IMG/VR virus record: IMGVR_UViG_2896589216_000003
Strand: one strand, 5' to 3'
Source: a virus
Taxonomy: Duplodnaviria > Heunggongvirae > Uroviricota > Caudoviricetes
DNA length: 32,297 bases
Positions 4,832 to 32,010 of the stretch are shown in pieces. The stretch's first letter is position 1, and every line of letters begins with the position of its first letter. Below the pieces are notes generated by a model. It saw only the letters and a program-made list of their open reading frames with translations. It did no database searches and was not told the DNA's origin. Made by a program: the position numbers and the translations under genes.

Positions 4832-6369
4832 ATGAGCAGCTCACTTCCTGACGATATCAATGCACTGAAACGTCTCCTTGCCGAACAGGAGGCGCTGAAC
4901 CGTGCCCTGCTGGAAAAGCTGAACGAGCGTGAACGCGAAATAGACCATCTGCAGGCACAGCTGGATAAGCTGCGCCGGATGAACTTCGGCAGCCGCTCCG
5001 AAAAAGTCTCCCGTCGTATCGCACAGATGGAAGCTGACCTGAAGGCACTTCAGAAAGAAAGTGATACCCTTACCGGTCGGGTTGACGACCCGGCCGTGCA
5101 GCGCCCGCTGCGTCAAACCCGCACCCGCAAACCGTTCCCCGAATCACTCCCCGCGATGAAAAACGGCTGCTGCCGGCAGCGTCATGCTGCCCGGAATGTG
5201 GAGGCTCACTGAGCTATCCGGGTGAGGATGCCGCCGAACAGCTGGAGTTGATGCGCAGCGTCTTCCGGGTTATCCGGACTGTACGTGAAAAGCATGCCTG
5301 TACTCAGTGCGATGCCATCGTGCAGGCCCCCGCGCCTTCACGGCCCATCGAGCGGGGTATCGCAGGACCGGGGCTGCTGGCCCGCGTGCTGATCTCAAAG
5401 TATGCAGAGCACACCCCGCTGTACCGCCAGTCTGAAATGTACGGCCGCCAGGGCGTGGAGCTGAGTCGTTCACTGCTGTCGGGCTGGGTGGATGCATGCT
5501 GCCGGCTACTGTCACCGCTGGAAGAAGCGCTTCAGGACTATGTGCTGACTGACGGTAAGCTCCATGCTGATGACACGCCTGTCCCGGTGCTGTTGCCAGG
5601 CAATAAGAAAACGAAGACCGGGCGGTTATGGACCTACGTTCGTGACGACCGTAACGCCGGGTCAACGCTGGCGCCGGCGGTGTGGTTCGCTTACAGCCCG
5701 GACAGAAAAGGCATCCATCCGCAGACCCATCTTGCGGGGTTCAGTGGTGTACTGCAGGCGGATGCATACGCCGGGTTCAACGAGCTGTACCGGGATGGCC
5801 GGATAACGGAAGCCGCCTGTTGGGCTCACGCCCGCCGTAAAATCCACGATGTGCACGTTCGCACCCCGTCAGCCCTGACGGAGGAAGCGCTGAAACGGAT
5901 CGGCGAACTGTACGCCATCGAGGCAGAGATAAGGGGAATGACGGCGGAGCAGCGCCTTGCCGAACGTCAGTTGAAAACGAAACCGCTGCTGAAATCCCTG
6001 GAAAGCTGGCTGCGTGAAAAGATGAAAACCCTGTCGCGACACTCAGAACTGGCGAAAGCGTTCGCATACGCCCTGAACCAGTGGCCGGCGCTGACGTACT
6101 ATGCAGATGATGGCTGGGCTGAGGCGGACAATAATATCGCTGAAAATGCGTTGCGGATGGTCAGTCTGGGCCGCAAAAACTACCTGTTCTTCGGTTCGGA
6201 TCATGGAGGAGAGCGGGGAGCGCTGCTGTACAGCCTGATCGGGACGTGCAAACTGAACGGAGTGGAGCCAGAAAGCTACCTCCGCTATGTACTTGACGTC
6301 ATAGCCGACTGGCCGATAAACCGGGTCGGCGAACTGCTCCCCTGGCGCGTAGCACTGCCGACTGAATAA
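4832..6369 (+). pseudogene. IS66-family transposase TnpC, frameshifted at the C-run 5149-5152
   Basis: ORF 4832..5212 ends ...[16 protein letters not shown]; the other frame continues [23 protein letters not shown]... straight into ORF 5248..6369. Confidence 0.8.
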
Positions 6370-6407
6370 CACATCCCCGTCAATACGGTTCTTGCTGCAC
6401 GCTTACC

Positions 6408-7304
6408 ATTGACGGGCGTGGTCTGGCTGGCGAGATCAGCAAGGAAACGGGTAAATCCCTGCGTGATAACGCTGAATACGTTAATCCCTGGGCGTCTCTG
6501 CATCGTGTTCAGCAATTCCGCTTCTTTGGTATTCCAGGGCGTCAGGCTTACCGTGAACTGCGGTTGTTGGCTGGTCAGGCGGCAAGGCAGCAGGGTGACA
6601 AAAAAGCAGGTGCGCCGGTACTGGATAACCCGCGCCTTGATGCCATCCTGGCTGCTGCTGATGCTGGCTGTTTTGCCACCTACATTATGAGGCAGGGCGG
6701 CGTGCTGGTTCCTCGCAAATATCACTTGATCAGAACCGCTTATGAAATCAATGAAGAGCCGACCGCCTATGGCGATCACGGTATTCGTATTTATGGCATC
6801 TGGTCACCCATTGCAGAAGGCAAGATCTGCACTCATGCAGTGAAGTGGAAAATGGTTCGTAAAGCCGTTGACGTTCAGGAGGCGGCAGCCGACCAGGGCG
6901 CTTGCGCCCCTTGGACTCGTGGCAATAACTGTCCCCTTGCTGAAAATTTGAACCAACAGGAGAAAGATAAATCAGCTGATGGGAACCCCAGAACGGACAT
7001 TACCAGCATGGATGACAAGGAGTTGCACGATTACCTGCACAGTATGAGCAAAAAAGAGCGCCGGGAACTGGCAGCAAGGTTACGCCTGGTGAAACCGAAA
7101 CGGCGTAAAGACTACAAACAGCGAATTACAGACCATCAGCGACTGCAGCTCGTGTATGAGCTGAAGTCCAGAGGATTTGATGGCAGCGAGAAAGAGGTCG
7201 ATTTACTCCTTCGCGGAGGCAGTATTCCGTCAGGAGCAGGCCTGCGTATCTTCTATCGGAACCAGCGTTTGCAGGAAGATGATCAGTGGCGGAACCTGTA
7301 TTAA
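6408..7304 (+). pseudogene. phage early-region protein, C-terminal fragment, 5'-truncated by the IS66-family element (by synteny probably the replication gene A-type protein)
   Basis: Reading frame is open from the IS end with no start codon; lies between the early region and the tum-like cassette. Identity not verified. Confidence 0.35.
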
Positions 7305-7387
7305 TTACGCGGGTTAACAATTCGTGCTCTTAATAATACCAGGCATATCAGGCTGATGAACGTAAAAAAACGTTTTACATCAGTAAG

Positions 7388-7396
7388 ATTATTATA
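7388..7396. repeat. 9-bp target-site duplication ATTATTATA, left copy, of IS1 copy 2
   Basis: Identical 9-mer at 8165-8173. Confidence 0.9.
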
Positions 7397-7411
7397 GGTA
7401 ATGACTCCAAC

Positions 7412-7915
7412 TCACTGATAGTGTTTTATGTTCAGATAATGCCCGATGACCTTGTCATGCAGCTCCACCGATTTTGAGAACGACAGTGACTTCCGTCCCA
7501 GCCTTGCCAGATGTTGTCTCAGATTCAGATTATGTCGCTCAATGCGCTGAGTGTAACGCTTGCTGATAACGTGCAGCTTTCCCTTCAGGCGTGATTCATA
7601 CAGCGGCCAGCCATCCGTCATCCATACCACGACCTCAAAGGCCGACAGCAGGCTCAGAAGACGCTCCAGTGTGGCCAGAGTGCGTTCACCGAAGACGTGC
7701 GCCACAACCGTCCTCCGTATCCTGTCATACGCGTAAAACAGCCAGCGCTGACGTGATTTAGCACCGACGTAGCCCCACTGTTCGTCCATTTCAGCGCAGA
7801 CAATCACATCACTGCCCGGTTGTATGCGCGAGGTTACCGACTGCGGCCTGAGTTTTTTAAGTGACGTAAAACCGTGTTGAGGCCAACGCCCATAATGCGT
7901 GCACTGGCGCGACAT
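7412..7915 (-). CDS. insB: IS1 InsB frame (variant isoform)
   Basis: Identical to the copy-3 InsB ORF. Confidence 0.9.
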
Positions 7916-8109
7916 CCGACGCCATTCATGGCCATATCAATGATTTTCTGGTGCGTACCGGGCTGAGAGGCGGTGTAAGTGAACTGTAGTTGCCATGTTT
8001 TACGGCAATGAGAGCAGAGATAGCGCTGATGTCCGGCAGTGCTTTTGCCGTTACGCACCACGCCTTCAGTAGCGGAGCAGGAAGGACATCTGATGGAAAT
8101 GGAAGCCAC
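7834..8109 (-). CDS. insA: IS1 InsA (variant isoform)
   Basis: [37 protein letters not shown]... Confidence 0.9.
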
Positions 8110-8164
8110 GCAAGCACCTTAAAATCACCATCATACACTAAATCAGTAAGTTGGCAGCATTACC

Positions 8165-8173
8165 ATTATTATA
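8165..8173. repeat. 9-bp target-site duplication ATTATTATA, right copy, of IS1 copy 2
   Basis: Matches 7388-7396. Confidence 0.9.
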
Positions 8174-8175
8174 TA

Positions 8176-8191
8176 CTGTAAATATAAACAG
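8176..8191 (+). promoter_or_regulatory. LexA (SOS) box CTGTAAATATAAACAG upstream of the tum/DinI-like cassette
   Basis: Matches CTGT-N8-ACAG with an AT-rich centre (20-mer TACTGTAAATATAAACAGTG); overlaps a -10-like TATAAA; 44 bp before the ATG at 8235. Confidence 0.6.
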
Positions 8192-8234
8192 TGGTTATGC
8201 ATGCAGTATTGCGTGTGGTGTCATAGGAGGAAAG

Positions 8235-8423
8235 ATGCAGGACTATTTTTTGGAGTCTTTGAAGCTCCAGCGCATTGATTTTTTTCTTAAGCTTGTAGCG
8301 GCTAGTGAGTGTAGTGATGAAGAGAAGGGGCTGGCTCTGCAGTGGGTTTCTGAATTGACTGATGAACTCATGGCAAAAATCAGAACCCACGAATACAACC
8401 GCTCAATGGATGTCATCAGCTGA
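8235..8423 (+). CDS. small protein, first gene of the SOS-controlled cassette (possible antirepressor N-part, Tum-like by position)
   Basis: ATG 8235 preceded by AGGAGG; 62 aa; the longer upstream start (8151) would overlap the IS1 end and LexA box. Confidence 0.5.
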   Translation: MQDYFLESLKLQRIDFFLKLVAASECSDEEKGLALQWVSELTDELMAKIRTHEYNRSMDVIS

Positions 8424-8433
8424 GGTGACTTTT

Positions 8434-8667
8434 ATGCGCATTGAAATAATGATCGATAAAGAGCAGAAGATTAGCCAGTCTACCCTGGACGCTCTTGAAT
8501 CCGAGCTTTACCGCAATCTGCGCCCTCTGTATCCCAAAACGGTAATTCGTATCCGCAAAGGTAGCTCTAACGGTGTGGAACTTACCGGATTGCAACTGGA
8601 CGAAGAAAGAAAACAAGTGATGAAAATTATGCAGAAGGTGTGGGAAGACGACAGCTGGCTGCATTAA
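8434..8667 (+). CDS. DinI-family protein (186 Tum C-domain-like)
   Basis: MRIEIMIDKEQKISQSTLDALESELYRNL...KQVMKIMQKVWEDDSW aligns with DinI (MRIEVTIAK...DALAGELSRR...ILQETWESADDW); RBS GAGG before ATG 8434. Confidence 0.75.
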   Translation: MRIEIMIDKEQKISQSTLDALESELYRNLRPLYPKTVIRIRKGSSNGVELTGLQLDEERKQVMKIMQKVWEDDSWLH

Positions 8668-8802
8668 GAAACGTTGCTGGCGTCTGAACTAGCTTCTGGC
8701 GTCAGCAAGGTTGAACAACGAGCCCTTGCGAGGCGTTAGCTCTGTAGTGCATGTCTATGCCGCATGAGATCGCATGATCGTTTGAGGATCGTTTTTGCTA
8801 AG

Positions 8803-8827
8803 GCCCGCCAGAACTGGCGGGCTTTTG
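8803..8827 (+). terminator. rho-independent terminator after the DinI-like gene
   Basis: GCCCGCCA-gaac-TGGCGGGC stem followed by TTTTG. Confidence 0.65.
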
Positions 8828-8889
8828 CGTAGATCATGCAGGTGCATGAAAACCACTACATAAAGCGGGCAGGCGTGGCGGGGATACGA

Positions 8890-8917
8890 TTGCGCGCTAG
8901 GTATAAGTGTGTAAAAT
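8890..8917 (+). promoter_or_regulatory. candidate sigma70 promoter for the ATPase/HNH module
   Basis: TTGCGC ... TG-adjacent TAAAAT about 40 bp upstream of ATG 8960; weak, by eye only. Confidence 0.25.
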
Positions 8918-8959
8918 AATTCCAAAATAAATCATCACTAATGAAGTGAGAGGGTAATA

Positions 8960-10609
8960 ATGTTAGTCAAGAAAAATAAAAATTATAGTTTATATTTTTT
9001 AATTACAAATAATCAACAGATATCTGATTCTGGTAATTATATAAAAATAGTCCCATCAAGAAGCGATTGGAATGATTTTGGATATTTGAGTAGAGTCGAA
9101 ATATCTATTTTTAATAAAAAAGAGTGTAAGGATATAATTTCACTGAATGGTTATATTGGTTTTTTGAATTCAGAGGAGGAACGAAATGGAAAAGCAGAAC
9201 TGATAAGGCGAGTGAAAAAAAAGGAAGAATCTAATTTAAAGGATGAGGGGTTTAATGATTATTTTGTCATGCTTCAGGATATGAATAATTATCGAAGACT
9301 AGTAAGATTTTTTGGGGTGAATGAATCCAAATATATATTAAATTTCATTAATGATGTTGTTTCTAAGAAAAGTGACGCTAGTGCAGAGAATTTGAGGAAA
9401 AAAGCAATCTCTTCTGATATCTTTAATAAATCTTTCATTAGAGAGTCTGAGTCGTATTTTACTTTCAAAAATGCAGGAACAGTTCTTTCCGGTATTCAAT
9501 ATGAGGAGTTGGGTAATTTATCACAGCACATCAAGATTAGCTATTCGAATAAAGTTAATGAAGAAGATGTATCTTATGTTTTTAATTTTGATCACGAGCA
9601 TGATTTACCAAAAAGAATTTCCATAATTATAGGCGAGAATGGTGTAGGAAAAAGCCAAACGCTTAGAGAAATCGCATTGGCTGCGATTAAAGGAAAGGAT
9701 AATTTGGTGGCTGTAGTTGATTCTAACGGTGTGAGCATTGAAGAACGAATTCAAATTAGTAGGCTCATTGCTTTTTCTCCAACAAATGAAAGTAAGTGTT
9801 CATTTCCAACCGATAAAAGAATAAAATCATTGATATGGTACAAAAGATTGACTTTAAATCGTGAATCAAAATCCAAATTAAACTTGAATGATTTAATAGT
9901 GCAACTAGCGAGGAGTAACGACGCTATCGGCTATAATCAAAGGTGGAATATATTTGTTGATGCACTGAGTGTTCTAAATAGTAACAACGATTTAGTAATC
10001 AAATGTGGCGGTGAAAATTCACCATTTGTTAAATTAAATGAGCTTAATTCTCGAGGCGAAGAATCTAGACTATCATTATATTCTGAAATTATTCTCTCTG
10101 GCGAGCCTTTGAGGCTTATTGAAAATAAATGTTACCCTTTGAGTAGTGGGGAAATATCGTTTATTAAGTTTTGTGTACAAGTTTGTTTGTATATTGAGAA
10201 TGGGACTCTTCTATTAATAGATGAGCCAGAAACACATCTCCATCCTTCATTTATTAATAAATTTATGGCATTGCTTGATAATTTATTAGAAAAGACAGGC
10301 TCTTCAGCTATCATAGCAACGCATTCGGTTTATCTTGTTCGGGAGGTTTTTAAGGAGCAAGTGACAATACTCAGAAGACGAGATGATGGGGTAATTGTTA
10401 GCGAAAAACCGAGATTGAGTACTTTTGGGGCGAATATAGGAAATATCTCATATTTTGTTTTCGGTGAGAGTGAACCAACTCAAATTTTAAATAAAGTAAA
10501 AAACAATATAATTGCAAAGAATATGTCTTGGGATGATGTTGAATCTAAATATAGCGAGGACTTATCACTTAATGTATTAACTGCGTTGAGAAATGAAATG
10601 GGCAATTGA
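8960..10609 (+). CDS. ABC/OLD-type (AAA_21-like) ATPase with about 215-aa N-terminal domain of unknown function; candidate defence protein
   Basis: 549 aa; Walker A GENGVGKS (aa 225-232), signature-like LSSGE (394-398), Walker B/D-loop LLLIDEPETHLHP (417-429), H-loop ATHS (453-456); RBS GAGAGGG; strongly AT-rich. Confidence 0.8.
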   Translation: MLVKKNKNYSLYFLITNNQQISDSGNYIKIVPSRSDWNDFGYLSRVEISIFNKKECKDIISLNGYIGFLNSEEERNGKAELIRRVKKKEESNLKDEGFNDYFVMLQDMNNYRRLVRFFGVNESKYILNFINDVVSKKSDASAENLRKKAISSDIFNKSFIRESESYFTFKNAGTVLSGIQYEELGNLSQHIKISYSNKVNEEDVSYVFNFDHEHDLPKRISIIIGENGVGKSQTLREIALAAIKGKDNLVAVVDSNGVSIEERIQISRLIAFSPTNESKCSFPTDKRIKSLIWYKRLTLNRESKSKLNLNDLIVQLARSNDAIGYNQRWNIFVDALSVLNSNNDLVIKCGGENSPFVKLNELNSRGEESRLSLYSEIILSGEPLRLIENKCYPLSSGEISFIKFCVQVCLYIENGTLLLIDEPETHLHPSFINKFMALLDNLLEKTGSSAIIATHSVYLVREVFKEQVTILRRRDDGVIVSEKPRLSTFGANIGNISYFVFGESEPTQILNKVKNNIIAKNMSWDDVESKYSEDLSLNVLTALRNEMGN

Positions 10610-11474
10610 AATGAATAAATTAAAAAGACCTGTTTTTAAAGATTATTCTGCATTTAAAAAACTATCTGCAAATAAGAGATTAAAACATCATTCTGTTCTG
10701 AATGGACAGGATACATTTATACTTAATGCATATAGATCGTACATAAAGAATAAAGGGTATCTTAATGTCAATTCTTGTGGCGTATTGAGTAACAATATTG
10801 CTGAAGCTTTGAGATATTATTATAACAATCCCGCAAAGTGTTTATCTATAATTGATGATATAAGAGCAGCTAATTCTAACTCTCTATGTCCAATGTGTGG
10901 TTCAATGCATAGCGGGACTTTGGATCATGTTTTACCCAAGGAAAACTATCCAGAATTTTCTTTATTCACTAAGAATTTGGTTCCTGCTTGCAAATGTAAT
11001 ACTTTCAAAAGTACTACTATAGCTAATTCTGCAGGCCATCGGATGCTGCATCCATATTTTGATAATATATTAAAACAAAGATTAATATGTGCTAATTTTT
11101 CTAAATTAGGGCGAACACCTACAATTGATGTAAAAATCATAATTGACCCAATGTCACCAGAATATAACAATGTTAAGTATCATCTTGATAATGTTGTTAT
11201 CAAGAATAATATTAAGGGGTATTTGTCTGAACAATGGGAGTCGTTTTACTTATATCCTGAGCTTGTTATTAGAGGACTGAATAAGAGTCTTTCTACTTAT
11301 AGCGATGTATATGAGTTGTTGACTCGCGAGTTGTTGCTGTTGGATGAAAAACATAAAGGTAAAAATAATTGGAATTCGGTTTTTGTAGCTGGGTTAATTC
11401 GACCTGATGTGATTAGGTGGATACTCTGTGAATTACATTTAGGTAACAGAAGTCCAGACGGTCGTCTCATATGA
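10593..11474 (+). CDS. HNH / His-Me-finger nuclease-like protein, partner of the ATPase
   Basis: CPMC-x8-DH-x20-CKCN ... H-x3-H (aa 99-153); overlaps the upstream gene by 17 nt (alternative in-frame ATG at 10611); same AT-rich composition. Confidence 0.7.
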   Translation: MKWAIEMNKLKRPVFKDYSAFKKLSANKRLKHHSVLNGQDTFILNAYRSYIKNKGYLNVNSCGVLSNNIAEALRYYYNNPAKCLSIIDDIRAANSNSLCPMCGSMHSGTLDHVLPKENYPEFSLFTKNLVPACKCNTFKSTTIANSAGHRMLHPYFDNILKQRLICANFSKLGRTPTIDVKIIIDPMSPEYNNVKYHLDNVVIKNNIKGYLSEQWESFYLYPELVIRGLNKSLSTYSDVYELLTRELLLLDEKHKGKNNWNSVFVAGLIRPDVIRWILCELHLGNRSPDGRLI

Positions 11475-11484
11475 TTTTTTGCAT

Positions 11485-11510
11485 CTTCAGCGTGTATCTG
11501 CACGCTGAAG
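11485..11510. repeat. perfect 10-bp inverted repeat (CTTCAGCGTG-tatctg-CACGCTGAAG) in the AT-rich spacer between the HNH gene and portal end; cos-proximal region
   Basis: Seen directly; T6 run upstream, A-rich downstream; not a canonical terminator in either direction. Confidence 0.4.
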
Positions 11511-11581
11511 AAATTCATAAAAACTGCTGCCTATTAATAAATTTTTTTAGCTGAGTTAAAGAACCTCATTTAGTGATTACG

Positions 11582-12615
11582 TTAAGTAGCTAGTTTATAA
11601 CTATCAAATTTAACAATGTTCTCACTTACCAATTTATTTATTTCCATCATTCTTTTTTGTAACGGTATTAACTCGTTACGTACAAACACCAGGCTCGCCT
11701 TCTCCACATCCCCAAACCCCCGACATTATTAGGCATAATCCCCATCATTTGCGGTGGCACACGATGCGCCGCCATCATGTCATCCCGGCTCACGTTCTTG
11801 ATGTTCAGAAACTCATCCTTCGCCGCGACTTCTGACAACGGGATGATCTGAAGCCCGTCCTTTTTGCCGTTAGGCGAGTACATAAACAGATTGCGGAAGT
11901 TACCTGGTCCTTTGGCGCTTTTCATCGCATTGCGGAGGTTGTTCACATCCTCCTGGTTTTGCGCGGCATCGGTCATGTACATGATGAAGCCTGCATGACT
12001 GCCGTTAATGTAATACTATCGGCGGAACAGCGTGGCGGACTCGTTGAGCAGGGCTGACGGAATGGCAGAAAGGTAACCTGGCAGGCCGTAGATCTCTTGG
12101 TTGATGTCCGGTTCCATCAGATGAAAGATGCTTCCTTTCGTGAACTGATACGGCTGCGTGGTCATGCCGTATTGCACAAACCAGTAGGTATCCAGGTCTA
12201 ATCCGCGTCGGGTGTATTTTGCCAGAGCAGGCTCAAGAGCGATGACCTCTCCGAACCGGTTTGTGCGTTTCTCCAGGTAAGCGTTACCAAATACCAGATA
12301 ATCCTGCACAAAACGTGAAAAAGCCTGCTGGCTGAGCAGCGGGTGAGGGATGTAGGTACTGATCAGAATGTTGCATTTCACCGCAATTGGTGAACTGTGA
12401 TGCACGGCGGCGCGGAAGGTGCGCGCCAGTCCGTCAAAACTCACTGGCGGCTCATACCAGCGATCTGTCTGTACGCATTCCACATAGTCCAGTAGTTCAC
12501 GGCGGTCCAGAACCGGAACGGGATCGCCGAAGCTGAATGCTTCGGCTGAAGTCTGGTTTTTATGCTGGGTCTGTTTCGTCGCCGCAGCGCGGTTCTTCTT
12601 ACTCTTTCCCATCAA
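11582..12615 (-). pseudogene. Q: portal protein (P2 gpQ-like) with in-frame TAG (12016-12018) and a 1-bp frameshift near 11714-11716
   Basis: N-part ...LNESATLFRR then TAG, continuing in the same frame (LYINGSHAGFIMY...); C-terminal ...PNNVGGLGMWRRR* shifts frame, the other frame gives GDVEKASLVFVRNELIPLQ... to stop at 11582. Confidence 0.8.
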
Positions 12616-14378: not shown

Positions 14379-14424
14379 GGCACAAACCTACAGCCTTGAA
14401 TGAAGGCTTTCCCCGCCTGCGGTT

Positions 14425-14442
14425 TGTGTGGTTGTCGGTACA
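14425..14442. promoter_or_regulatory. Ogr-type late-promoter activator site TGT-N12-ACA in the P/O divergent control region
   Basis: TGTGTGGTTGTCGGTACA; centre about 87 bp upstream of the O start codon. Confidence 0.45.
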
Positions 14443-14520
14443 AATACCGCGCATTGTTTCACTGCCCCTATCACCGCAACCATAAGGCTCCAGTAAGTTT
14501 TTTCTAACGGAGCACGGCTC

Positions 14521-15354: not shown

Positions 15355-15370
15355 TGGAGCACAAAACCTG

Positions 15371-17083: not shown

Positions 17084-17178
17084 CAGAACGTGCCCCCGCG
17101 CACGGGCGGCACGGGGTGGCGAAAGGCACAGCCACATCAAAACCCCGTCCATCGCCCTTTATTTCAGGAGAAAGCAGC

Positions 17179-17625
17179 ATGAAGTTTGTTGCGCCAGAAC
17201 AGGCACCGGAACAGGCGGAAATCATTAGAAATACGCCGTTCTGGCCTGATGTGGACCTGTCGGAGTTTCGCAGTGTCATGCGCACTGACGGCACGGTGAC
17301 GCAGCCGCGTTTAAAGTAGGTTGCACTGTCGGCAATTTCGGAGGTTAACGCAGAGCTGTATGAATTTCGCAGACGCCAGCAGATGCTGGGGTATGCGTCG
17401 GAACAGCTGGACGGGAAAAGTGAGCGCATTCAGCACTATTTCAACGCGGTTTACTGCTGGGCTCGCGCCATGCTCAACGAACGTTTCCAGGACTATGACG
17501 CCACGGCATCCGGTGCGAAGCGGGGCGAAGAACTGGCGGAAGCAAGCGGTGATTTGTGGCGTGACGCCCGCTGGGCCATCAGCCGGGTGCAGGACGCGCC
17601 GCACTGCACAGTGGAGCTTATCTGA
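17179..17625 (+). pseudogene. L: head completion/stabilisation protein (P2 gpL-like) with in-frame TAG at 17317-17319
   Basis: ATG 17179 with AGGAG RBS; ...VTQPRLK then TAG then VALSAISEVNAELYEF... in the same frame, ending ...RDARWAISRVQDAPHCTVELI. Confidence 0.75.
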
Positions 17626-19871: not shown

Positions 19872-20265
19872 ATTGCAGAAGGTGGACGACTGGCTGAGTG
19901 CATTATTGGCGAATCTGGAGCCAGCCGCAAGAAGCCGCATGATGCGCCAGCTGGCGCAGGAACTGCGCCGGACACAGCAGCAGAATATCAGGATGCAGCG
20001 CAATCCAGATGGCAGCAGTTATGAGCCGCGCAGGGTAACAGCACGCAGCAAAAAGGGGCGCATCAAACGTCAGATGTTTACAAAGCTGCGCACCACAAAA
20101 TACCTGAAAACTGCAGCCAGCGCCGATTCTGCCAGCGTACAGTTTGAAGGTAGGGTGCAGCGCATTGCCCGTATTCACCATTACGGCTTGAGTGATCGCG
20201 TCAGTCGAAAAGGTATTTATACCATCTATGCGAAAAGGCAGTTATTAGGTTTTAATGTCCGGTAA
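19864..20265 (+). pseudogene. S: tail completion protein, P2 gpS-like, 3'-truncated by IS1 copy 3
   Basis: Stop codon TAA (20263-20265) is formed by IS1 terminal bases; ...YAKRQLLGFNVR*. Confidence 0.7.
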
Positions 20266-20315
20266 TGCTGCCAACTTACTGATTTAGTGTATGATGGTGA
20301 TTTTAAGGTGCTTGC

Positions 20316-20591
20316 GTGGCTTCCATTTCCATCAGATGTCCTTCCTGCTCCGCTATTGAAGGCGTGGTGCGTAACGGCAAAAGAACTGCCGGACATCAGC
20401 GCTATCTCTGCTCTCATTGCCGTAAAACATGGCAACTACAGTTCACTTACACCGCCTCTCAGCCCGGTACGCACCAGAAAATCATTGATATGGCCATGAA
20501 TGGCGTCGGATGTCGCGCCAGTGCACGCATTATGGGCGTTGGCCTCAACACGGTTTTACGTCACTTAAAAAACTCAGGCCGCAGTCGGTAA
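20316..20591 (+). CDS. insA: IS1 InsA (variant isoform)
   Basis: [37 protein letters not shown]... Confidence 0.9.
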
Positions 20592-21013
20592 CCTCGCGCA
20601 TACAACCGGGCAGTGATGTGATTGTCTGCGCTGAAATGGACGAACAGTGGGGCTACGTCGGTGCTAAATCACGTCAGCGCTGGCTGTTTTACGCGTATGA
20701 CAGGATACGGAGGACGGTTGTGGCGCACGTCTTCGGTGAACGCACTCTGGCCACACTGGAGCGTCTTCTGAGCCTGCTGTCGGCCTTTGAGGTCGTGGTA
20801 TGGATGACGGATGGCTGGCCGCTGTATGAATCACGCCTGAAGGGAAAGCTGCACGTTATCAGCAAGCGTTACACTCAGCGCATTGAGCGACATAATCTGA
20901 ATCTGAGACAACATCTGGCAAGGCTGGGACGGAAGTCACTGTCGTTCTCAAAATCGGTGGAGCTGCATGACAAGGTCATCGGGCATTATCTGAACATAAA
21001 ACACTATCAGTAA
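20510..21013 (+). CDS. insB: IS1 InsB frame (variant isoform)
   Basis: 167-aa ORF identical to that of copy 2. Confidence 0.9.
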
Positions 21014-21023
21014 GTTGGCAGCA

Positions 21024-21560
21024 TTACCATGCAGCCCTCACAATATAGTTAAAAGCGACATTTCGTGGGCGTGTTTCATTCGCACCTGCAGGTTTAGTCG
21101 TTGCCGCAACAACACCACCCTCTGTAATAGCCGGGTTGGGAATTGGGTAATTATCGAAGTCAATGGCCGGAGACAGGGGCGTGATTTGTTTTAAAATCGT
21201 GGTGCCTGTAAAACTTTCCAGAGTCTGGTCGTTAGTTCGTGAAGTCCAGATTCCCCAATAGTGGTTATGACTGACAATCGCACCGTCCTGAAGCGTTAAT
21301 AATCCCCTTCCGTTATCCACTCCACGTCCGTCATCCCAGCCACGAATAAACTCACCGCGTAAATCAGGCAATTTATTTGTCGGGTAAGCCTTTGCCAGTT
21401 CCGGGTATTCTTCAGCAGAAAAAGCCGCACCATTGCATTTCAGCCAGCCTGTCGGCGGAGTGGCTGAAGGCCACGGAACAGGCACACCAACAGGTAATGC
21501 AGAGCCTTCTCCCAAACCAACGTTTAAGAAAATGCAGAGATAATGGCTAACTGGCATCAT
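21024..21560 (-). pseudogene. tail-fibre variable C-terminal cassette (inverted-orientation segment of a Gin/Pin-type shufflon), truncated by IS1 copy 3
   Basis: ...PVGVPVPWPSATPPTGWLKCNGAAFSAEEYPELAKAYPTNKLPDLRGEFIRGWDDGRGVDNGRG... conserved tail-fibre junction motif; ORF begins at the crossover-like site and runs into the IS1 end. Confidence 0.65.
21507..21532. promoter_or_regulatory. gix/hix/cix-like 26-bp imperfect palindrome: candidate invertase crossover site
   Basis: TTCTCCCAAACCAACGTTTAAGAAAA resembles gix (TTATCCAAAACCTCGGTTTACAGGAA); sits at the 5' end of the tail-fibre cassette next to the invertase gene. Confidence 0.5.
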
Positions 21561-22202: not shown

Positions 22203-22220
22203 TGTGTGAATAACGACACA
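22203..22220. promoter_or_regulatory. Ogr-type late-promoter activator site TGT-N12-ACA upstream of FI
   Basis: TGTGTGAATAACGACACA; centre about 85 bp upstream of the FI start codon. Confidence 0.45.
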
Positions 22221-22296
22221 ACTGCGCTTAGCTGTTTGTCAGGCACAATCACTTCAACATAGGGCGAAGCCTAATCCAATCAGGAGGTTCGCCACT

Positions 22297-23469: not shown

Positions 23470-23478
23470 GGGGACAAC

Positions 23479-23994: not shown

Positions 23995-24048
23995 TGTATC
24001 TGAACGGCGCGGAATGCCGCGCCAGAACCTAATTTACAGGACAACAAA

Positions 24049-24351
24049 ATGAGCGATAAGCAGACTGAAAAGACCATTCAACTGGATACTCCCATCATGC
24101 GCGGTAAAACAGAAATTACCGAAATTGTGTTGCGTAAACCGCAGTCCGGTGCGCTGCGCGGCACACGCCTGCAGGCCATTATGGATATGGATGTGAACGC
24201 GATGATGACCGTGATCCCCCGCATCTCCAGTCCGGCACTGACTGCACAGGAAATTGCAGAGATGGACCCGGCAGATCTCACTGCCATGTCGGTTGAGGTT
24301 GTCACTTTTTTGTTGAAGAAGTCGGTGCTTGCCGGTTTACCGACAGCCTGA
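24049..24351 (+). CDS. E: tail assembly chaperone, P2 gpE-like (E' extension to 24485 by -1 frameshift)
   Basis: 100 aa; the -1 frame is open from the slippery site to TGA 24483-24485 (...IFHWPPSVTDVMPLTEVLEWRDKAIQRSGASHE*). Confidence 0.85.
   Translation: MSDKQTEKTIQLDTPIMRGKTEITEIVLRKPQSGALRGTRLQAIMDMDVNAMMTVIPRISSPALTAQEIAEMDPADLTAMSVEVVTFLLKKSVLAGLPTA
24306..24312 (+). promoter_or_regulatory. programmed -1 frameshift slippery heptamer TTTTTTG (E to E+E')
   Basis: T6G seen at the 3' end of E with an open -1 frame after it; matches the conserved P2-family tail chaperone frameshift. Confidence 0.7.
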
Positions 24352-24477
24352 CGGTTGACGATCTGGTGGCTGATATCGCCACCATCTTTCACTGGCCGCC
24401 ATCCGTTACTGACGTTATGCCGCTGACCGAAGTGCTGGAATGGCGGGATAAAGCGATTCAGAGAAGCGGGGCCAGCC

Positions 24478-27400
24478 ATGAGTGACAATAACCTGCGTCT
24501 GCAGGTGATTCTTAATGCGGTTGACAAACTCACCCGCCCATTTCGATCCGCGCAGGCCAGTTCAAGAGAACTGGCTGCTGCTGTCAAAAAATCCCGCGAT
24601 GCAATAAAGCAGCTTGATCAGGCCGGGAGCAGTCTGGACAGCTTCCGAAAGCTGCAGGCAGAAAATCAGAAATTAGGCGACAGGCTGAACTATGCCCGCC
24701 AGCGTGCAAATTTGCTCAGTCAGGAACTGGGAGCGATGGGGCCGCCTTCGCAACGTCAGGTTGTTGCTCTGGGCCGTCAACGGCTGGCTGTTCAGCGCCT
24801 GGAAGAACGCCAGAAAAAGCTGCAGCAGCAGACGGCGCTTGTGCGTGCAGAACTTTATCGTGCTGGTATTTCAGCTAATGATGGCGCCAGTGCGACGGCC
24901 CGCATTACCCGTGAAACGATGCGTTATAACAGGCAGCTTTCTGAGCAGGAAGCGAGGTTACGACGTGTCGGGGAGCAACAGCGAAAAATGCACGCCGCCC
25001 GGGGGCTTACGCCAGGCGTCTTGAGGTAAGGGATCGTATTGCAGGTGCCGGAGCCACCACCACGGCTGCAGGGCTGGCAATGGGCGCACCAGTGATGGCG
25101 GCAGTAAAAAGCTATACCAGCATGGAAGATGCCATGAAAGGTGTGGCAAAGCAGGTCAATGGTCTGCGTGACGATAATGGCAACCGCACTGCGCGTTTTT
25201 ACGAAATGCAGGGTGCCATCAAGGCTGCCAGCGAACAGTTGCCGATGGAAAACGGTGCTGTGGACTTCGCCGCACTGGTTGAAGGTGGTGCGCGCATGAA
25301 CGTCGCAAACCCTGACGACAGCTGGGAAGACCAGAAACGTGACCTGCTGGCCTTCGCCAGCACGGCGGCAAAGGCGGCAACAGCCTTTGAACTGCCAGCG
25401 GATGAACTGTCAGAAAGTCTGGGGAAAATCGCCCAGCTCTACAAAATCCCTACCCGCAATATTGAGCAGCTCGGTGATGCGCTGAACTATCTGGATGATA
25501 ACGCCATGTCGAAAGGGGCGGACATCATTGATGTCATGCAACGCCTGGGCGGTGTGGCTGACCGTCTGGATTATCGTAAAGCGGCGGCGCTGGGTTCCAC
25601 CTTCCTGACACTCGGCGCTGCGCCTGAGGTTGCAGCCAGTGCAGCAAACGCGATGGTGCGTGAATTGTCCATTGCCACCATGCAAAGCAAGAGTTTCTTT
25701 GAAGGGATGAATCTGCTGAAACTCAATCCAGAAGTGATTGAAAAGCAGATGACGAAGGATGCGATGGGAACTATCCAGCGGGTGCTGGAGAAGGTGAATG
25801 CGCTGCCACAGGATAAGCGCCTGTCTGCCATGACCATGTTGTTTGGTAAAGAGTTTGGCGATGACGCAGCGAAACTGGCAAACAACCTGCCGGAACTTCA
25901 GCGCCAGTTAAAACTGACTGCGGGCAATGATGCGCTCGGTTCCATGCAGAAAGAATCCGACATCAACAAGGATTCACTTTCTGCTCAGTGGTTGCTGGTC
26001 AAAACCGGAGCACAGAACACCTTCAGCAGCCTGGGGGAAACGCTGCGCCAGCCGCTGATGGATATTCTGTACACGGTGAAAAGCGTCACGGGGGCGTTGC
26101 GTCGCTGGGTGGAAGCTAACCCGGAACTGACGGGCACTCTGATGAAAGTAGCCGCTGTGGTAGCTGCCGTTACCGTGGGCCTCGGCACCTTAGAGGTGGC
26201 GCTGGCTGCAGTGCTGGGGCCGCTGGCAGTCATCCGTCTGGGATTCTCTGTGCTGGGTATCAAAACGTTACCTTCCGTTACGGCAGCAGTAACCCGAACC
26301 AGCAACGCGTTGTCCTGGCTGGCTGGCGCACCACTGGCACTGCTGCGACGCGGGCTTGCTTCATCGGGCAACGCTGCAGGTTTACTTACTGCGCCGTTGT
26401 CGTCTTTGCGCCGCACGGCATCACTGACGGGAAATGTCCTGAAAACTGTAGCAGGTGCGCCGGTTGCACTTTTGCGGGTCTGGATTATCCGGTTTACGTG
26501 CGGTTGCTGTGATGTTTATGAATCCACTGGCGGTACTACGCGGCGGACTGGCTGCCACAGGCACGGTGCTGCGTATGCTCGCATCCGGTCCACTGGCGAT
26601 GCTGCGCGTTGCCCTGTATGCCGTCTCTGGTCTGTTAGGTGCTCTGCTCAGTCTGATAGGTCTTGTGGTTACTGCACTGGCGGGTGTGGCGCTGGTTGTC
26701 TGGAAATACTGGCAGCCCATCACCACATTTCTCGGTGGCGTGGTGGAAGGATTCAAAGCGGCGGCAGGTCCTGTCAGTGCCGCGTTCGAACCGCTTAAGC
26801 CTGTGTTCCAGTGGATTGGCGACAAAGTACAGGCGCTGTGGGGCTGGTTTACTGATCTGCTGACGCCCGTTAAGTCGACCTCTGCCGAACTGCAGAGTGC
26901 AGCGGCAATGGGGCGACGATTCGGGGAGGCTCTGGCGGAAGGGCTGAATATGGTCATGCATCCGCTGGACTCCCTGAAATCCGGCGTTTCCTGGTTGCTG
27001 GAGAAACTTGGCATTGTCAGTAAAGAGGCCGCAAAGGCGAAACTGCCGGAAAGCGTGACGCGTCAGCAACCTGCGACGGTGAATGCAGACGGTAAAGTGA
27101 TGATGCCATCGGGTGGTTTTCCGTCATGGGGATATGGCTTTGCGGGGATGTATGACAGCGGCGGGTATATCCCGCGCGGGCAGTTTGGCATCGTCGGTGA
27201 AAACGGGCCGGAAATTGTTAACGGCCCGGCAAATGTGACCAGCCGGAGAAATACAGCTGCACTGGCTGCCGTTGTTGCCGGAATGATGGGTGTTGCTGCT
27301 ACGCCAGCAGAGCTTCCACCGTTGCACCCTTTGGCACTTCCCGCGAAAGGCGGTGAAGCGATGGTGAGTCGTGCAGCCACTGTGCCGCCCGTTCAACGGA

Positions 27401-27555
27401 TTGAGGCACCGATGCAGATCATCATTCAAACGCAGCCAGGACAAAGTGCGCAGGATATTGCGCGGGAGGTGGCCCGCCAGCTTGATGAACGTGAACGCAG
27501 GCTGAAGGCAAAAGCCAGGAGTAACTACAGCGATCAGGGGGGATACGACGCATGA
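24478..27555 (+). pseudogene. T: tail tape measure protein (P2 gpT-like) with two frame discontinuities (about 24999-25005 and about 26483-26511); genuine lesions or sequencing errors
   Basis: Three ORFs (24478..25029, 25080..26798, 26455..27555) tile the gene in frames 1/0/1; first break is in a G5 run; ORF2 tail reads as out-of-frame nonsense. Confidence 0.7.
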
Positions 27556-28037
27556 TGATGGTGCTGGGATTGTACGTGTTTATGCTGCGCACCGTGCCGT
27601 ATCAGGAGCTGCAGTATCAACGCAGCTGGCGACATGCGGCAAACAGCCGGGTAAACCGACGCCCGTCAACGCAGTTTCTGGGACCGGACAACGACATGCT
27701 GACGCTTTCTGGTGTTCTTATGCCGGAGGTAACGGGCGGCAGGCTGTCGTTGCTGGCTCTGGAGCAGATGGCAGAACAGGGAAAAGCATGGCCCCTGATT
27801 GAAGGCAGCGGCACGATTTACGGCATGTATGTGATTGAGGGACTGAATCAGACTAAAACGGAGTTTTTCCGCGACGGTATGCCGCGCCGGATTGAGTTCA
27901 CCCTGTCGCTAAAACGCGTGGATGAATCCCTGTCCGATATGTTCGGTGATCTCAGTGCGCAACTGAATAATCTGCAGGGAACGGCAACATCTGCCTTAAG
28001 CGATATCAGTAAAACGGTGGGAGGGCTGCTGTCGTGA
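27552..28037 (+). CDS. U: tail protein, P2 gpU-like
   Basis: 161 aa; position after T. Confidence 0.85.
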   Translation: MMMVLGLYVFMLRTVPYQELQYQRSWRHAANSRVNRRPSTQFLGPDNDMLTLSGVLMPEVTGGRLSLLALEQMAEQGKAWPLIEGSGTIYGMYVIEGLNQTKTEFFRDGMPRRIEFTLSLKRVDESLSDMFGDLSAQLNNLQGTATSALSDISKTVGGLLS

Positions 28038-29134
28038 ATTTCAGCTCTGAACTGCTTAACAAAGGCAACAAAACTCCGGCATTCAGCATCAGTATTGAAG
28101 GCAGGGATATCACCACTGTGCTGGACAACCGCCTGATGGGGCTGACGCTGACGGATAACCGGGGCTTTGAGGCGGACCAGCTTGATCTGGAGCTGGACGA
28201 CGCCGATGGAAAAATCGTGCTGCCGCGCCGTGGGGCTGTCATTACGCTGGCGCTGGGCTGGAAGGGACAGCCGCTTTTCCCGAAAGGGGCATTCACGGTG
28301 GACGAGATTGAACACACTGGCGCACCGGATCGCCTGACTATCCGGGCGCGAAGTGCTGATTTTCGTGAAACGCTGAATACCCGCCGTGAAAAGTCGTGGC
28401 ACAAGACCACCGTTGGGGAAGTGGTGAAGGAAATAGCTGCGCGGCACAAACTGAAGATGGCATTGGGTGAAGACTTGTCGGATAAACTCGTGGAGCATAT
28501 AGACCAGACTAATGAGAGTGACGGCAGTTTTTTGATGCGGCTGGCGCGCCAGTACGGTGCTATTGCGTCGGTGAAAAATGGCAATCTGTTATTCATCCGG
28601 CAGGGGCAGGGTAAAAGCGCCAGCGGTAAACCACTACCGGTGATCACTATCACACGCAAGGACGGCGACAGTCACCGCTTTACCCTGGCAGATCGCGGAG
28701 CTTACACGGGCGTCATTGCCAGCTGGTTGCATACCCGCGAACCCGCGAAGAAAGAAAGCACCACTGTGAAGCGTAAGCGCAGGACTAAGAAGCAGAAGAA
28801 AGAGCCGGAAGCGAAGCAGGGCGATTACCTGGTGGGTACGGATGAAAACGTGCTGGTACTTAATCGCACTTATGCCAACCGGAGCAACGCCGAACGGGCA
28901 GCGAAAATGCAGTGGGAACGCCTGCAACGCGGCGTTGCATCATTCTCGCTACAACTGGCGGAAGGGCGGGCAGATCTCTACACAGAAATGCCTGTGAAGG
29001 TCAGTGGCTTTAAACAGCCGATAGATGATGCGGAATGGACCATTACGACTCTGACGCATACTGTCAGCCCGGATAACGGTTTTACGACCAGTCTGGAGCT
29101 TGAAGTGAGGATTGATGATTTCGAAATGGAATGA
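28034..29134 (+). CDS. D: tail protein, P2 gpD-like
   Basis: 366 aa; position after U, before ogr. Confidence 0.85.
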   Translation: MNFSSELLNKGNKTPAFSISIEGRDITTVLDNRLMGLTLTDNRGFEADQLDLELDDADGKIVLPRRGAVITLALGWKGQPLFPKGAFTVDEIEHTGAPDRLTIRARSADFRETLNTRREKSWHKTTVGEVVKEIAARHKLKMALGEDLSDKLVEHIDQTNESDGSFLMRLARQYGAIASVKNGNLLFIRQGQGKSASGKPLPVITITRKDGDSHRFTLADRGAYTGVIASWLHTREPAKKESTTVKRKRRTKKQKKEPEAKQGDYLVGTDENVLVLNRTYANRSNAERAAKMQWERLQRGVASFSLQLAEGRADLYTEMPVKVSGFKQPIDDAEWTITTLTHTVSPDNGFTTSLELEVRIDDFEME

Positions 29135-29224
29135 TTCTTCGCAATGGAGAACTTTTAAGTTTGCAAAATGGAATAATGCGGTATCATTATTGTGAATTTA
29201 GCAAAAATGGGGAGAACTCGAAAA

Positions 29225-29443
29225 ATGATGATTTGCCCACTGTGTGGAAGTGCCGCCCATACTCGCAGCAGTTTTCAGGTATCTTCATTGACCAAAGAGC
29301 GTTACAACCAGTGCCAGAACATTAACTGCAGCCATACTTTTGTTACCCATGAAACTTTTGTTCGTTCGATTGCAACGCCAAAAGAGTCAAATCCGGTTCA
29401 GCCGCATCCAATGAAATCAGGACAGGTGGCGCTCTCTCTTTGA
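29225..29443 (+). CDS. ogr: Ogr/Delta-type zinc-finger late-gene transcription activator
   Basis: 72 aa from ATG 29225 (RBS GGGGA); CPLCGSAAHTR...YNQCQNINCSHTF zinc-finger pattern as in P2 Ogr. Confidence 0.85.
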   Translation: MMICPLCGSAAHTRSSFQVSSLTKERYNQCQNINCSHTFVTHETFVRSIATPKESNPVQPHPMKSGQVALSL

Positions 29444-29529
29444 CGCTGCCGCCATTTTGTCGCCATCGTTAAAAAACAGTGCTTCTAACATCATGATTTT
29501 AAAAGGCATAAATTTCAGACAACAAAAAA

Positions 29530-29566
29530 CCCATCAACCTTGAACCGAAATGGCGGGGTTGATGGG
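29530..29566 (-). terminator. rho-independent terminator downstream of ybjL (minus-strand sense)
   Basis: CCCATCAACC ... GGTTGATGGG 10-bp stems with a 17-nt loop, followed on the minus strand by a T6 run. Confidence 0.5.
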
Positions 29567-29678
29567 CTCCACAAAATGGGGACATCAAAGAAAAGCAGTG
29601 GCACTAATTAAGACTGATGCCCTGCGGAAAAGTTCTGCGGTTGTGCAAAAAAATTTCATTTTCAGGGCAACTTCAGTT

Positions 29679-31364
29679 TTATCCTAATCCTGGCCATACC
29701 ATGACGATGATTGTCCCTGCCAGCGTCAGCAGGACGTTGGCGATTGCGTAGGTGCCCGCATAGCCCAGCGCAGGGATGTTACTGCGAGCTGTATCACTGA
29801 TGATCTCCATTGCCGGCGCGCAGGTGCGTGCGCCCATCATTGCGCCGAACAACAGTGCGCGGTTCATTCGCAATACATAAGCACCGAACAAGAAACAGAT
29901 AACCACGGGCACAAGACTGACAATTAATCCGGCAATCAACATCTGACCGCCAATCGCGGCCAGGCCGTTATTAATACCGCTACCGGCGCTCAGACCAACG
30001 CCTGCCATAAACACCATCAAGCCGAACTCTTTCACCATGCTTAATGCACCTTGCGGAATGTAACCGAAGGTCGGGTGGTTAGCACGCATAAAGCCCAGCA
30101 TAATTCCGGCGAATAACAACCCGGCAGCGTTCCCCATGCCGAAACTGAATGTGCTGAACTGGAAGGTGATCATCCCGATCATCAGCCCAATAACAAAGAA
30201 GGCGCAAAATGCCAGCAGGTCAGTGACCTGGCTGTGAATCGAGATAAAGCCGATGCGATCGGCAATGGTTTTTACGCGACGGGCATCACCGCTGACTTGT
30301 AAAACGTCACCTTTGTTAAGCACGACGTTGTCATCTATCGGCATCTCAATCTGGCTACGAATGACGCGGTTAAGGAAGCAACCGTGATCGGTCAACTTCA
30401 GTTGTGCGAGACGTTTACCTACAGCGTTATGGTTTTTAACGACCACTTCTTCAGTGACGATACGCATGTCGAGAAGGTCACGATCGAAAACTTCTTTACC
30501 GTTACGGAAGCTGGGATCGAGTCGGGCATGGGCGTCGGGATAGCCTACCAACGCTATTTCATCGCCCATTTGTAGCACGGCATCACCGTCTGGATTTGCC
30601 AGAATCCCGTTACGTCGAATACGTTCAATGTAGCAGCCGGTTTGTCGATAAATACCCAGTTCACGCAGATTTTTGCCGTCGGTCCAGGCCACCAGCTCCG
30701 GGCCGACGCGATAGGCGCGGATCACCGGTAAATAAACCTTACGGTTGGCATCAGTGTCCAGGCCACGTTCGCGGGCGATTTGCTGGGCGCTGGTCTGTAA
30801 GTCCTGATGCTGCAATTTCGGCAAGTAACGCGCACCAACAATCAAACTCACCAGACCGATTAAATAGGTTAAGGCATACCCGAGGCTCAGATTATCCAGT
30901 GCCAGTGAGAGCTGCCTGCTTTCCATGCCGGAATGACGCAGTGTATCGCCAGCACCGACCAGAACCGGTGTCGACGTCATAGAGCCTGCTAACATACCGG
31001 CCGTCAGGCCAATATCCCAGCCAAACAGCTTACCTAACCCTAAGGCGATCACCAGCGCACTGCCAACCATCACCAGTGCTAACATTAGGTAATTTTTCCC
31101 ATCGCGAAAAAAAATGGAAAAAAAGTTCGGTCCGGCTTCGACCCCGACGCAGAAAATAAACAGCATAAAGCCAAGATTAAGCGCATCGGTGTTAATGCTG
31201 AAATGTTGTTGGCCTAATAACAGCGATACGACTAAAACGCCAATGGAATTACCCAGTTGGATCGAACCAAGTCGTAACTTTCCGAGACATAGCCCAAGCG
31301 CGAGGACCACAAATAATAACAGAATGTAATTCCCATTTAACAATTCGGCGACGTTTATATTCAC
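29679..31364 (-). CDS. ybjL: putative transport protein YbjL (AAE-family transporter with TrkA-C domains); host gene
   Basis: 561 aa, [33 protein letters not shown]...; recognised as enterobacterial YbjL. Confidence 0.9.
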
Positions 31365-31633
31365 GGAGGCTAACTTCTTGTTTACTAGTAAGCTGTTGAA
31401 AGAAATGGTAATTTACGATAATGTTTTTTACCAGAATTCAGGGCGCAGATTCATTCAGCGCACCTAAACGATAGTAAAGTAACAATGTATTTTACTAGTG
31501 TAATCACATTAGGTATCAACGGCTATATGAATTGCGTTGGCCTATATTAGCATGGAATGCGAAGCGGCTTTATCTTACTGAACGCCACACTGGCGAAAAA
31601 TGTGTTCGATAGACGCAGTGTCAGGAGGAACGA

Positions 31634-32010
31634 GTGAAACATAAACAACGTTGGGCAGGGGCAATCTGCTGTTTTGTCCTCTTCATTGTGGTGTGCCTTT
31701 TTCTGGCGACGTACATGAAAGGCGCTTTTCGGGCTGCCGGGCATCCTGAAATCGGCTTGCTGTTTTTCATTCTTCCTGGAGCAGTTGCCAGTTTCTTTTC
31801 ACAGCGTAGAGAAGTCCTGAAACCTCTATTTGGCGCAATGCTGGCGGCACCCTGTTCAATGCTCATTATGCGGCTGTTTTTTTCACCGACGCGCTCATTC
31901 TGGCAAGAGCTGGCATGGTTACTAAGCGCGGTGTTCTGGTGTGCGCTGGGGCACTGTGTTTCTTATTTATCAGTAGTTTGTTTAAACCACAGCACAGAAA
32001 AAATCAGTAA
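31634..32010 (+). pseudogene. ybjM: inner-membrane protein YbjM with apparent 1-bp deletion in the G-run 31948-31951 (run-on ORF to 32167 otherwise)
   Basis: After ...FWCALG the alternative frame reads ALCFLFISSLFKPQHRKNQ* (hydrophobic, stops at 32008-32010 just before a hairpin); the annotated frame runs 128 bp into convergent grxA. Confidence 0.55.

Follow-up and report, generated by a model that had tools for sequence, protein, structure and literature searches.

Apparent frameshifts at four G/C runs in a defective Shigella dysenteriae 14 prophage probably reflect PacBio consensus error

Results

Four of the five frame breaks in a defective P2-like prophage of Shigella dysenteriae 14 and its host flank appear to be products of sequencing rather than of decay. 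Judging from comparisons of the sequence alone, we put at roughly 90% the probability that the single-base losses at positions 5149, 11717, 25001 and 31948 are consensus errors of an unpolished PacBio-only assembly, in which long G/C homopolymers would have been called one base short and thereby produced apparent frameshifts. The losses repair to exact database matches, are associated with one sequencing batch, are incongruent with the phylogeny and depend on run length; these observations together point to the PacBio consensus step as the likely place where they arose. Three TAG codons and one gained base in the same region are real (Table 1).

The window, by which we mean the whole 32,297-nucleotide stretch analysed, contains the prophage adjoining ybjL-ybjM-grxA and is 100% identical to CP026832.1, S. 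dysenteriae 14 ATCC 49346. According to papers citing Kim et al. [quoted passage not shown] The identity to CP026832.1 and the statements of these citing papers place the window in a PacBio assembly without short-read polishing. The orthogonal comparators were near-identical strains, not ATCC 49346 itself, and the platforms of Logan contigs are presumed, hence "short-read-type" below. None of the comparators is identical to the window, which has two private SNPs (17152 and 21564). Real markers, namely SNPs and the gained G at 26476, cleanly split the relatives into lineages A and B.

Table 1. Frame-disrupting features of the window and their proposed reading
Feature	Coordinates	Strand	Change and reading
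Integrase W208*	430..432	-	TGG to TAG vs intact prophage; genuine
tnpC C4 run, truncated ISEc22 (IS66-family) copy	5149..5152	+	True length most likely C5
Portal C5 run (G5 on coding strand)	11717..11721	-	True length probably C6; apparent frameshift
Portal K199*	12016..12018	-	AAG to TAG; genuine
Head completion Q47*	17317..17319	+	CAG to TAG; genuine
Tape measure G5 run	25001..25005	+	True length probably G6; apparent -1 frameshift
Tape measure G3 run (G2 in intact relatives)	26476..26478	+	+1 frameshift, lineage-fixed; genuine
Host ybjM G4 run	31948..31951	+	True length probably G5; apparent frameshift, 177-aa read-through product

Four losses in long G/C runs are repaired by one base

The first-pass annotation, made from the sequence alone, had reported five frame breaks and assigned four of them to single-base losses in homopolymers. 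All five are present, and the four are one-base losses in G/C runs. The run positions given for tnpC, the tape measure and ybjM were exact; the portal indel had been placed in an A3 run at 11714-11716 and belongs instead to the adjacent C run. The true length of each affected run is at least 5. Since G/C runs of this length cover only 73 of 32,301 bases (0.23%), the placement of all four losses within them is far beyond chance. The alternative frames had been described as sensible protein, and adding one base at each site gave proteins with exact matches in the collection, Logan and ENA assemblies among them. Products in the shifted frame occur almost exclusively on long-read genomes, nearly all of this batch; the exceptions, both at the tape measure, are a noisy Logan contig and a contig below 2 kb.

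At the portal site, the repaired 133-aa fragment was found on 293 contigs and the shifted 104-aa product on four. C6 is present in 10 assemblies, among them short-read-type contigs from lineage A and from lineage B, and in every relative outside the batch; C5 is restricted to four CDC PacBio genomes. The TAG codon at K199 would therefore be, on the artefact reading, the sole break of the portal gene in the real chromosome.

The tape measure G6 is present in 773-aa products on 28 contigs, with a further 164 for a sibling allele. The shifted 183-aa product was found in 13 batch genomes in addition to the two exceptional contigs. The 13 genomes with G5 are complete genomes of the CP0267xx-CP0268xx series and come from lineages that real markers tell apart. 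The Logan contig, ERR14938997, was treated as unreliable because, within 10.4 kb, other G, A and T runs in it also differ in length by one base and there is another one-base insertion. Four Logan contigs carry a prophage of ~3% divergence and were taken as uninformative, with G5 at the equivalent of 25001 in all four and G5 at a second G6 run in three.

The tnpC site in a multi-copy insertion sequence

The C4 run divides tnpC into frames at 4832-5212 and 5248-6369. Repaired TnpC is exactly the ISEc22 transposase and was found on 39 contigs; the shifted N-terminal fragment was found on 18, of which 14 exceed 1 Mb and none comes from Logan or ENA. Because the IS is present in multiple copies, short-read assemblies do not resolve this site. 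It is conceivable that only the portal, tape measure and ybjM losses are artefacts and that C4 in tnpC is genuine, the allele of a defective ISEc22 copy. In several long-read genomes and on a plasmid, many copies of ISEc22 carry C4, and the copy in the window, already truncated and lacking tnpA and most of tnpB, would be free to decay. We consider this division unlikely: every C4 carrier is a long-read-type assembly, C5 is found at the orthologous copy in each of the six other long-read genomes covering the site, and three siblings have private C-run deletions within the same 1.5 kb of tnpC, a different one in each, with 0 to 2 substitutions. An intact 512-aa tnpC is found in CP026807, CP026828 and PSSQ01. 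Consensus error at this site as at the others thus remains the preferred reading, and in the real chromosome the tnpC of this remnant probably forms one uninterrupted frame. The recurrence of C4 at IS copies could also mean a real defective IS lineage, which counts against the artefact reading.

TAG codons and a gained G are fixed in the lineage

The TAG substitutions had been set apart as a class less likely to be artefactual, and this was borne out, as all three are shared with independent short-read assemblies. The truncated 207-aa integrase is found on 155 contigs (NCBI, Logan and ENA). The 198-aa portal product is found on at least 1000 contigs, its TAG codon being common to all Shigella assemblies compared. 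Q47* in the head completion gene is found in both lineage A and lineage B, short-read-type contigs among them; an 18-bp deletion, also shared, follows it at 17399.

The second tape measure break had been described as lacking a homopolymer at the junction. The break itself stands, but it consists of one extra base in a short G run. All assemblies of lineage A have the gain, NCTC and short-read-type contigs among them; it is absent from lineage B and from the intact uropathogenic E. coli (UPEC) prophage. Through it the frame lost at 25001 is regained. As a 572-aa product occurs on complete genomes only, the gained G was considered as the suspect break of the two; this was rejected, as the 773-aa short-read products have both the gained G and G6. 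On the artefact reading, the gain would be the only break in the tape measure gene of the real chromosome.

These four changes behave as lineage-fixed pseudogene mutations, and the locus resembles other Shigella pseudogenes and degraded P2-like prophages in its nonsense codons, fixed +1 frameshift, IS insertions and deletions. The prophage also carries IS1, IS911-like and ISEc22 insertions.

Short runs follow the sequencing batch rather than the phylogeny

Comparison with close genomes, proposed in the first-pass annotation as a check, showed the longer run at the portal, tape measure and ybjM in independent assemblies of other strains belonging to the same lineages. Sibling CDC genomes and short-read or NCTC assemblies had no substitutions over 13-20 kb, with differences confined to these G runs. 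CP026823 differs from AKNG01000051 (19,366 bp compared) and from SRR5006044 only at 25001 and 31948. The same two runs are the only differences between CP026805 and either SRR5018263 or NCTC UYIT01000009, which are identical to each other. Within the batch, CP026807 and CP026823 have no substitutions and differ only in two C runs. G5 at 25001 and C5 at 11717 each occur in batch genomes of both lineages.

The losses are single-base homopolymer deletions whose rate rises with run length. In 13 batch genomes, 4 of 3637 G/C runs of three bases were one base short (0.1%), as were 11 of 713 runs of four (1.5%), 11 of 88 runs of five (12.5%) and 16 of 27 runs of six (59%); a single gain in G/C-run length was counted, in CP026842. 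None of 6915 A/T runs of three to six bases in these genomes was one base short, and neither was any of 4111 G/C runs in 16 other assemblies.

A comparable case is the first closed genome of Clostridium autoethanogenum, an unpolished PacBio RS II-only assembly with 243 Sanger-confirmed under-called homopolymers, where single-base deletions only were found, concentrated in homopolymers of at least 4 (PMC4687164). Shared with that case are the annotated frameshifts, which Illumina or Sanger data lack, and an assembly from PacBio reads alone. It differs in that the losses here are confined to G/C runs, that some sites recur across most of the batch (25001 in 10 of 10), and that the ybjM site shows an unexplained lineage association.

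On a rival reading, genuine reductive decay, the four deletions arose by slipped-strand mutation and became fixed in the strain, as one would expect of a pseudogene-rich pathogen and a defective prophage. Decay of the prophage is real, as the changes described above attest, and the window's private SNPs make private indels possible. Decay at these four runs is nevertheless highly improbable. It would need repeated gain or reversal with zero substitutions in at least two sub-lineages, its deletions occur in one sequencing batch only, and their rate tracks G/C run length while A/T runs are untouched. The short runs follow the batch and not the phylogeny, which disfavours inherited decay. Unlike Shigella reductive decay, the losses at 5149, 11717, 25001 and 31948 are not inherited along lineages, as judged by independent assemblies and SNP phylogeny, and at the sites resolvable in short reads they are missing from independent near-identical assemblies.

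The ybjM site

Intact Y27 YbjM is found on 317 contigs and the shifted Y27 product on five, all NCBI. G5 is the run length in otherwise identical contigs from NCTC, AKNG and Logan, and among 5,274 complete E. coli genomes the 81-mer with G4 matches exactly in only one. Under the artefact reading, ybjM would be intact in the real chromosome. The shift had also been considered as a real lineage marker, as it co-segregates with the gained G at 26476 in the batch and 177-aa products occur on 58 contigs; this was rejected because the 58 contigs come from another lineage, one that lacks the prophage, and because G5 is found in the short-read and NCTC contigs of lineage A. In that prophage-free lineage the same run truly lost a G, so genuine mutation at this tract does occur, which favours decay and counts against the artefact reading.

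Within the batch, the loss is found in five of six lineage-A genomes and none of five lineage-B genomes with identical local sequence. A simple context-driven error leaves this skew unexplained, which also counts against the artefact reading. A lineage-specific DNA modification close to the G run and perturbing polymerase kinetics, or a tract heterogeneous within cultures, might underlie the under-call, although we give this very little credence.

That the runs are programmed slippery or phase-variable contingency sites, both lengths coexisting in cultures, has a negligible chance of being correct: G tracts can be hypermutable, and programmed frameshifting is well established in P2-like phages and in IS1 and IS3 elements such as occur elsewhere in the window, but in intact relatives, among them the UPEC prophage, and likewise in the repaired products, there is a single frame per gene with no conserved two-frame layout, no tract-length polymorphism was seen in the 16 non-batch assemblies, and the four genes are functionally unrelated.

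Discussion

Taken together, repair, batch association and run-length dependence support homopolymer-length sequencing error as the source of several apparent pseudogenes here, as the first-pass annotation had suspected. The result is an ordinary one and its value is in quality control only. A public closed S. dysenteriae 14 "reference" lists ybjM, a transposase and two phage genes as frameshifted, most likely wrongly. Pseudogene counts, cgMLST alleles and reductive-evolution studies that draw on the PacBio genomes of Kim et al. would be inflated by G/C-run deletions, which, as estimated from this locus, affect about 1 in 8 G/C runs of five and more than half of those of six. The genuine decay of the prophage stands, in its three TAG codons, the gained G at 26476 and its IS insertions.

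Single-base indels and genuine damage in the prophage

The window carries its defective P2-like prophage between rcdA (ybjK) and ybjL-ybjM-grxA, and L001, the intact prophage of E. coli UPEC-245U, lies at the same site with 99.6% identity. CP026832.1 is 100% identical to the window over positions 1668-21982; ShigaPass (PMC10132075) gives it as a sequence produced by PacBio from Shigella dysenteriae 14 ATCC 49346, citing Kim et al. Base-by-base comparison of the prophage and host part with L001 yielded exactly four single-base indels, which are listed below with the tnpC break. G/C runs with a true length of at least 5 make up 0.23% of the window and hold all four losses (4/4), which rules out chance. 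The run coordinates of the first-pass annotation held for three sites; at the portal, the indel sits in the C run beside the A3 run that had been named. The second tape-measure break, described there as lying outside any homopolymer, is present but is actually a +1 in a GG pair.

Features of the window and of the ybjM comparison contigs
Feature	Position	Context	Comparison
tnpC break	5149-5152	C4 run	
C lost	11717	minus-strand portal gene	window C5, L001 C6
G lost	25001	tape measure gene	window G5, L001 G6
G gained	26476	tape measure gene	window G3, L001 G2
G lost	31948	ybjM	window G4, L001 G5
IS911-like (IS3-family) element carrying an IS1	2587-4612	interrupts phage CII gene; IS1 at 2736-3503, flanked by 9-bp duplication cacggtggc	extra relative to L001
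Truncated ISEc22 (IS66-family)	from 4613	only tnpC and 3' end of tnpB kept; truncated within tnpB, abutting the IS911-like element	extra relative to L001
IS1	7397-8164	intergenic, after repA; 9-bp duplication attattata	extra relative to L001
IS1	20261-21028	in place of baseplate and tail-fibre genes	extra relative to L001
Inverted piece of tail-fibre region	21029-21523	after the preceding IS1, adjoining Cin/Hin-type recombinase gene	
ybjM, prophage-free lineage	10001-10534 (locus)	contigs L023, L025, L026	

Relative to L001, deletions have removed early, baseplate and tail-fibre genes, and three TAG codons interrupt the integrase (W208*), portal (K199*) and head completion (Q47*) genes. These codons had been set apart as a separate class less likely to be artefactual, and this holds up. 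The truncated integrase product is on 155 contigs (NCBI, Logan and ENA) and the truncated portal product on at least 1000, S. flexneri records among them. Since the TAG codons and the second tape-measure frameshift are real, the defect of the prophage is real as well.

Other differences accompany this damage. About 2.7 kb kept by sibling genomes (tnpA, most of tnpB, the repA N-terminal part and dam) is absent from the window. Compared with the intact UPEC prophage, the head completion gene has an 18-bp in-frame deletion at 17399 that is also found in short-read-type contigs and looks real, and a small hypothetical gene has a 12-bp tandem duplication (1393-1404) that recurs in 3/3 other CDC PacBio genomes compared. 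Two substitutions, at 17152 and 21564, are private to the window among more than 12 relatives; both are intergenic and may be either strain markers or errors.

Repaired products and matched genomes

One base was added at each of the four loss sites, the resulting proteins were looked up, and contigs with repaired forms were compared with the batch genomes (the PacBio genomes of Kim et al. 2018). The shifted portal product (104 aa) occurs on 4 contigs, all complete CP0268xx-series genomes, and the repaired fragment of 133 aa is exact on 293. The portal run is C6 in 10 assemblies, and C5 only in the window, CP026823, CP026825 and CP026840; C6 was also read in five short-read-type contigs belonging to the CP026840 lineage. 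For ybjM, the shifted product with Y27 (177 aa) was found on 5 contigs, from NCBI only, and the repaired intact protein carrying the lineage marker Y27 on 317 (NCBI, Logan and ENA).

The shifted N fragment of the tape measure (183 aa) is on 15 contigs: 13 complete CP0267xx-CP0268xx genomes, one contig of less than 2 kb, and Logan ERR14938997, which has additional homopolymer indels besides G5 at 25001. Window repair at 25001 gives a protein equal to P0034, the 773-aa tape measure product of the window's own allele, found on 28 contigs; the sibling allele P0033 is on 164. Both begin at the natural start, read through G6 at 25001 and end in the frame set by +G at 26476, so the 26476 break is old and real and the 25001 break is the batch-specific one. 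In this assembly the -1 at 25001 and the +1 at 26476 cancel, and the last third of the gene (26455-27555) thereby regains its original frame. Once repaired, the real gene would give the 773-aa truncated product followed by an out-of-frame tail.

Near-identical pairs differ at the same runs. CP026823 shows 0 substitutions over 19,366 aligned bases against AKNG01000051, a draft of S. dysenteriae 225-75, and over 13,157 bases against Logan SRR5006044; from each it differs solely in two G runs, those at 25001 and 31948. CP026805 likewise shows 0 substitutions against Logan SRR5018263 (14,033 bases) and NCTC UYIT01000009 (20,554 bases), which do not differ from each other, and departs from each at the same two G runs. 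CP026807, a batch genome and the longest contig to carry the tape measure, portal and YbjM products in repaired form, has 0 substitutions against CP026823, with two C runs the sole differences. The Logan runs agree among themselves, with the drafts and with the NCTC assembly, and on that basis were treated as presumably independent.

Real markers (+G at 26476 plus a set of SNPs) separate two lineages: A, with the window, CP026823, CP026805, CP026842, CP026825, NCTC, AKNG and several Logan runs, and B, with CP026840, CP026731, CP026866, CP026814, CP026797 and several Logan runs. Batch genomes with G5 at 25001 and with C5 at 11717 are found in A as well as in B, but 0 non-batch genomes of either lineage have these variants, which thus track batch, not descent.

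Run-length dependence of the losses

With the repaired window as reference, every homopolymer of at least 3 bases was scored in each covering assembly (13 batch, 16 other).

Homopolymer runs called one base short
Run	Batch	Other
G/C, 3	4/3637	0/3341
G/C, 4	11/713	0/671
G/C, 5	11/88	0/74
G/C, 6	16/27	0/25
A/T, 3-6	0/6915	0/6940

The batch has one G/C-run length gain, in CP026842. The dependence on run length, being steep, base-specific and deletion-only, is of the kind that an under-calling consensus gives rise to. It also matches a published case, a genome assembled from PacBio RS II data only, in which 243 under-called homopolymers were confirmed by Sanger sequencing (PMC4687164). The window has 4 of its 14 G/C runs of at least 5 shortened. 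One-base G/C-run deletions number 12 in 26 kb of CP026825 (3 substitutions) and 11 in 17 kb of CP026842 (15 substitutions). Consensus quality in CP026825.1 and CP026842.1 is much below that of the window's genome, and their deletions split terminase, AAA ATPase, tube, gpD, capsid and other genes.

The first-pass suspicion of homopolymer errors is thus borne out by the repair test, the matched pairs, the tracking with batch and the run-length error rates. On these sequence comparisons, the frameshifts at least at the three checkable sites are very probably assembly artefacts (probability about 0.9), and it is likely that all four are. Host ybjM is most likely intact. As a feature this is an ordinary one, of value for quality control only.

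Alternative explanations for individual sites

The artefact call is weakest at tnpC, where we still consider it probable. ISEc22 is present in multiple copies, which short-read assemblies collapse. The 126-aa TnpC N fragment is on 18 contigs, NCBI only (14 of them longer than 1 Mb), and an exact-product look-up found none among Logan or ENA contigs; the repaired 512-aa protein, under the name 'IS66-like element ISEc22 family transposase [Shigella]', is on 39. The orthologous ISEc22 copy has C5 at 5149 in 6/6 other long-read genomes, with tnpC intact at 512 aa in 3/6; CP026823, CP026825 and CP026840 each have a private C-run deletion in tnpC, at a different place. The C4 allele was found again at many IS copies of other long-read genomes, as could be expected of a recurrent error site or of a real lineage of defective IS copies.

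Four Logan contigs (SRR19634193, SRR22550175, SRR19634191, SRR19634182) carry a P2-like prophage about 3% divergent, with G5 at the 25001-equivalent run in 4/4, G5 at the 27537-equivalent run in 3/4 and no other indels. Their G5 could reflect a similar under-call or real variation.

Within the batch, the ybjM loss is in 5/6 genomes of lineage A and 0/5 of lineage B, and the sequence within ~90 bp is identical. This bias could come from the sequencing run or its chemistry, from coverage or from DNA modification; the first of these is plausible, since lineage-A assemblies are generally richer in errors. A true G4 at this run occurs in a separate prophage-free Shigella/E. coli lineage, on many Logan and ENA contigs of 20-50 kb that show no further indels, so the artefact in the window mimics a mutation that happened elsewhere. 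The G4 81-mer is exact in 1/5,274 complete E. coli genomes.
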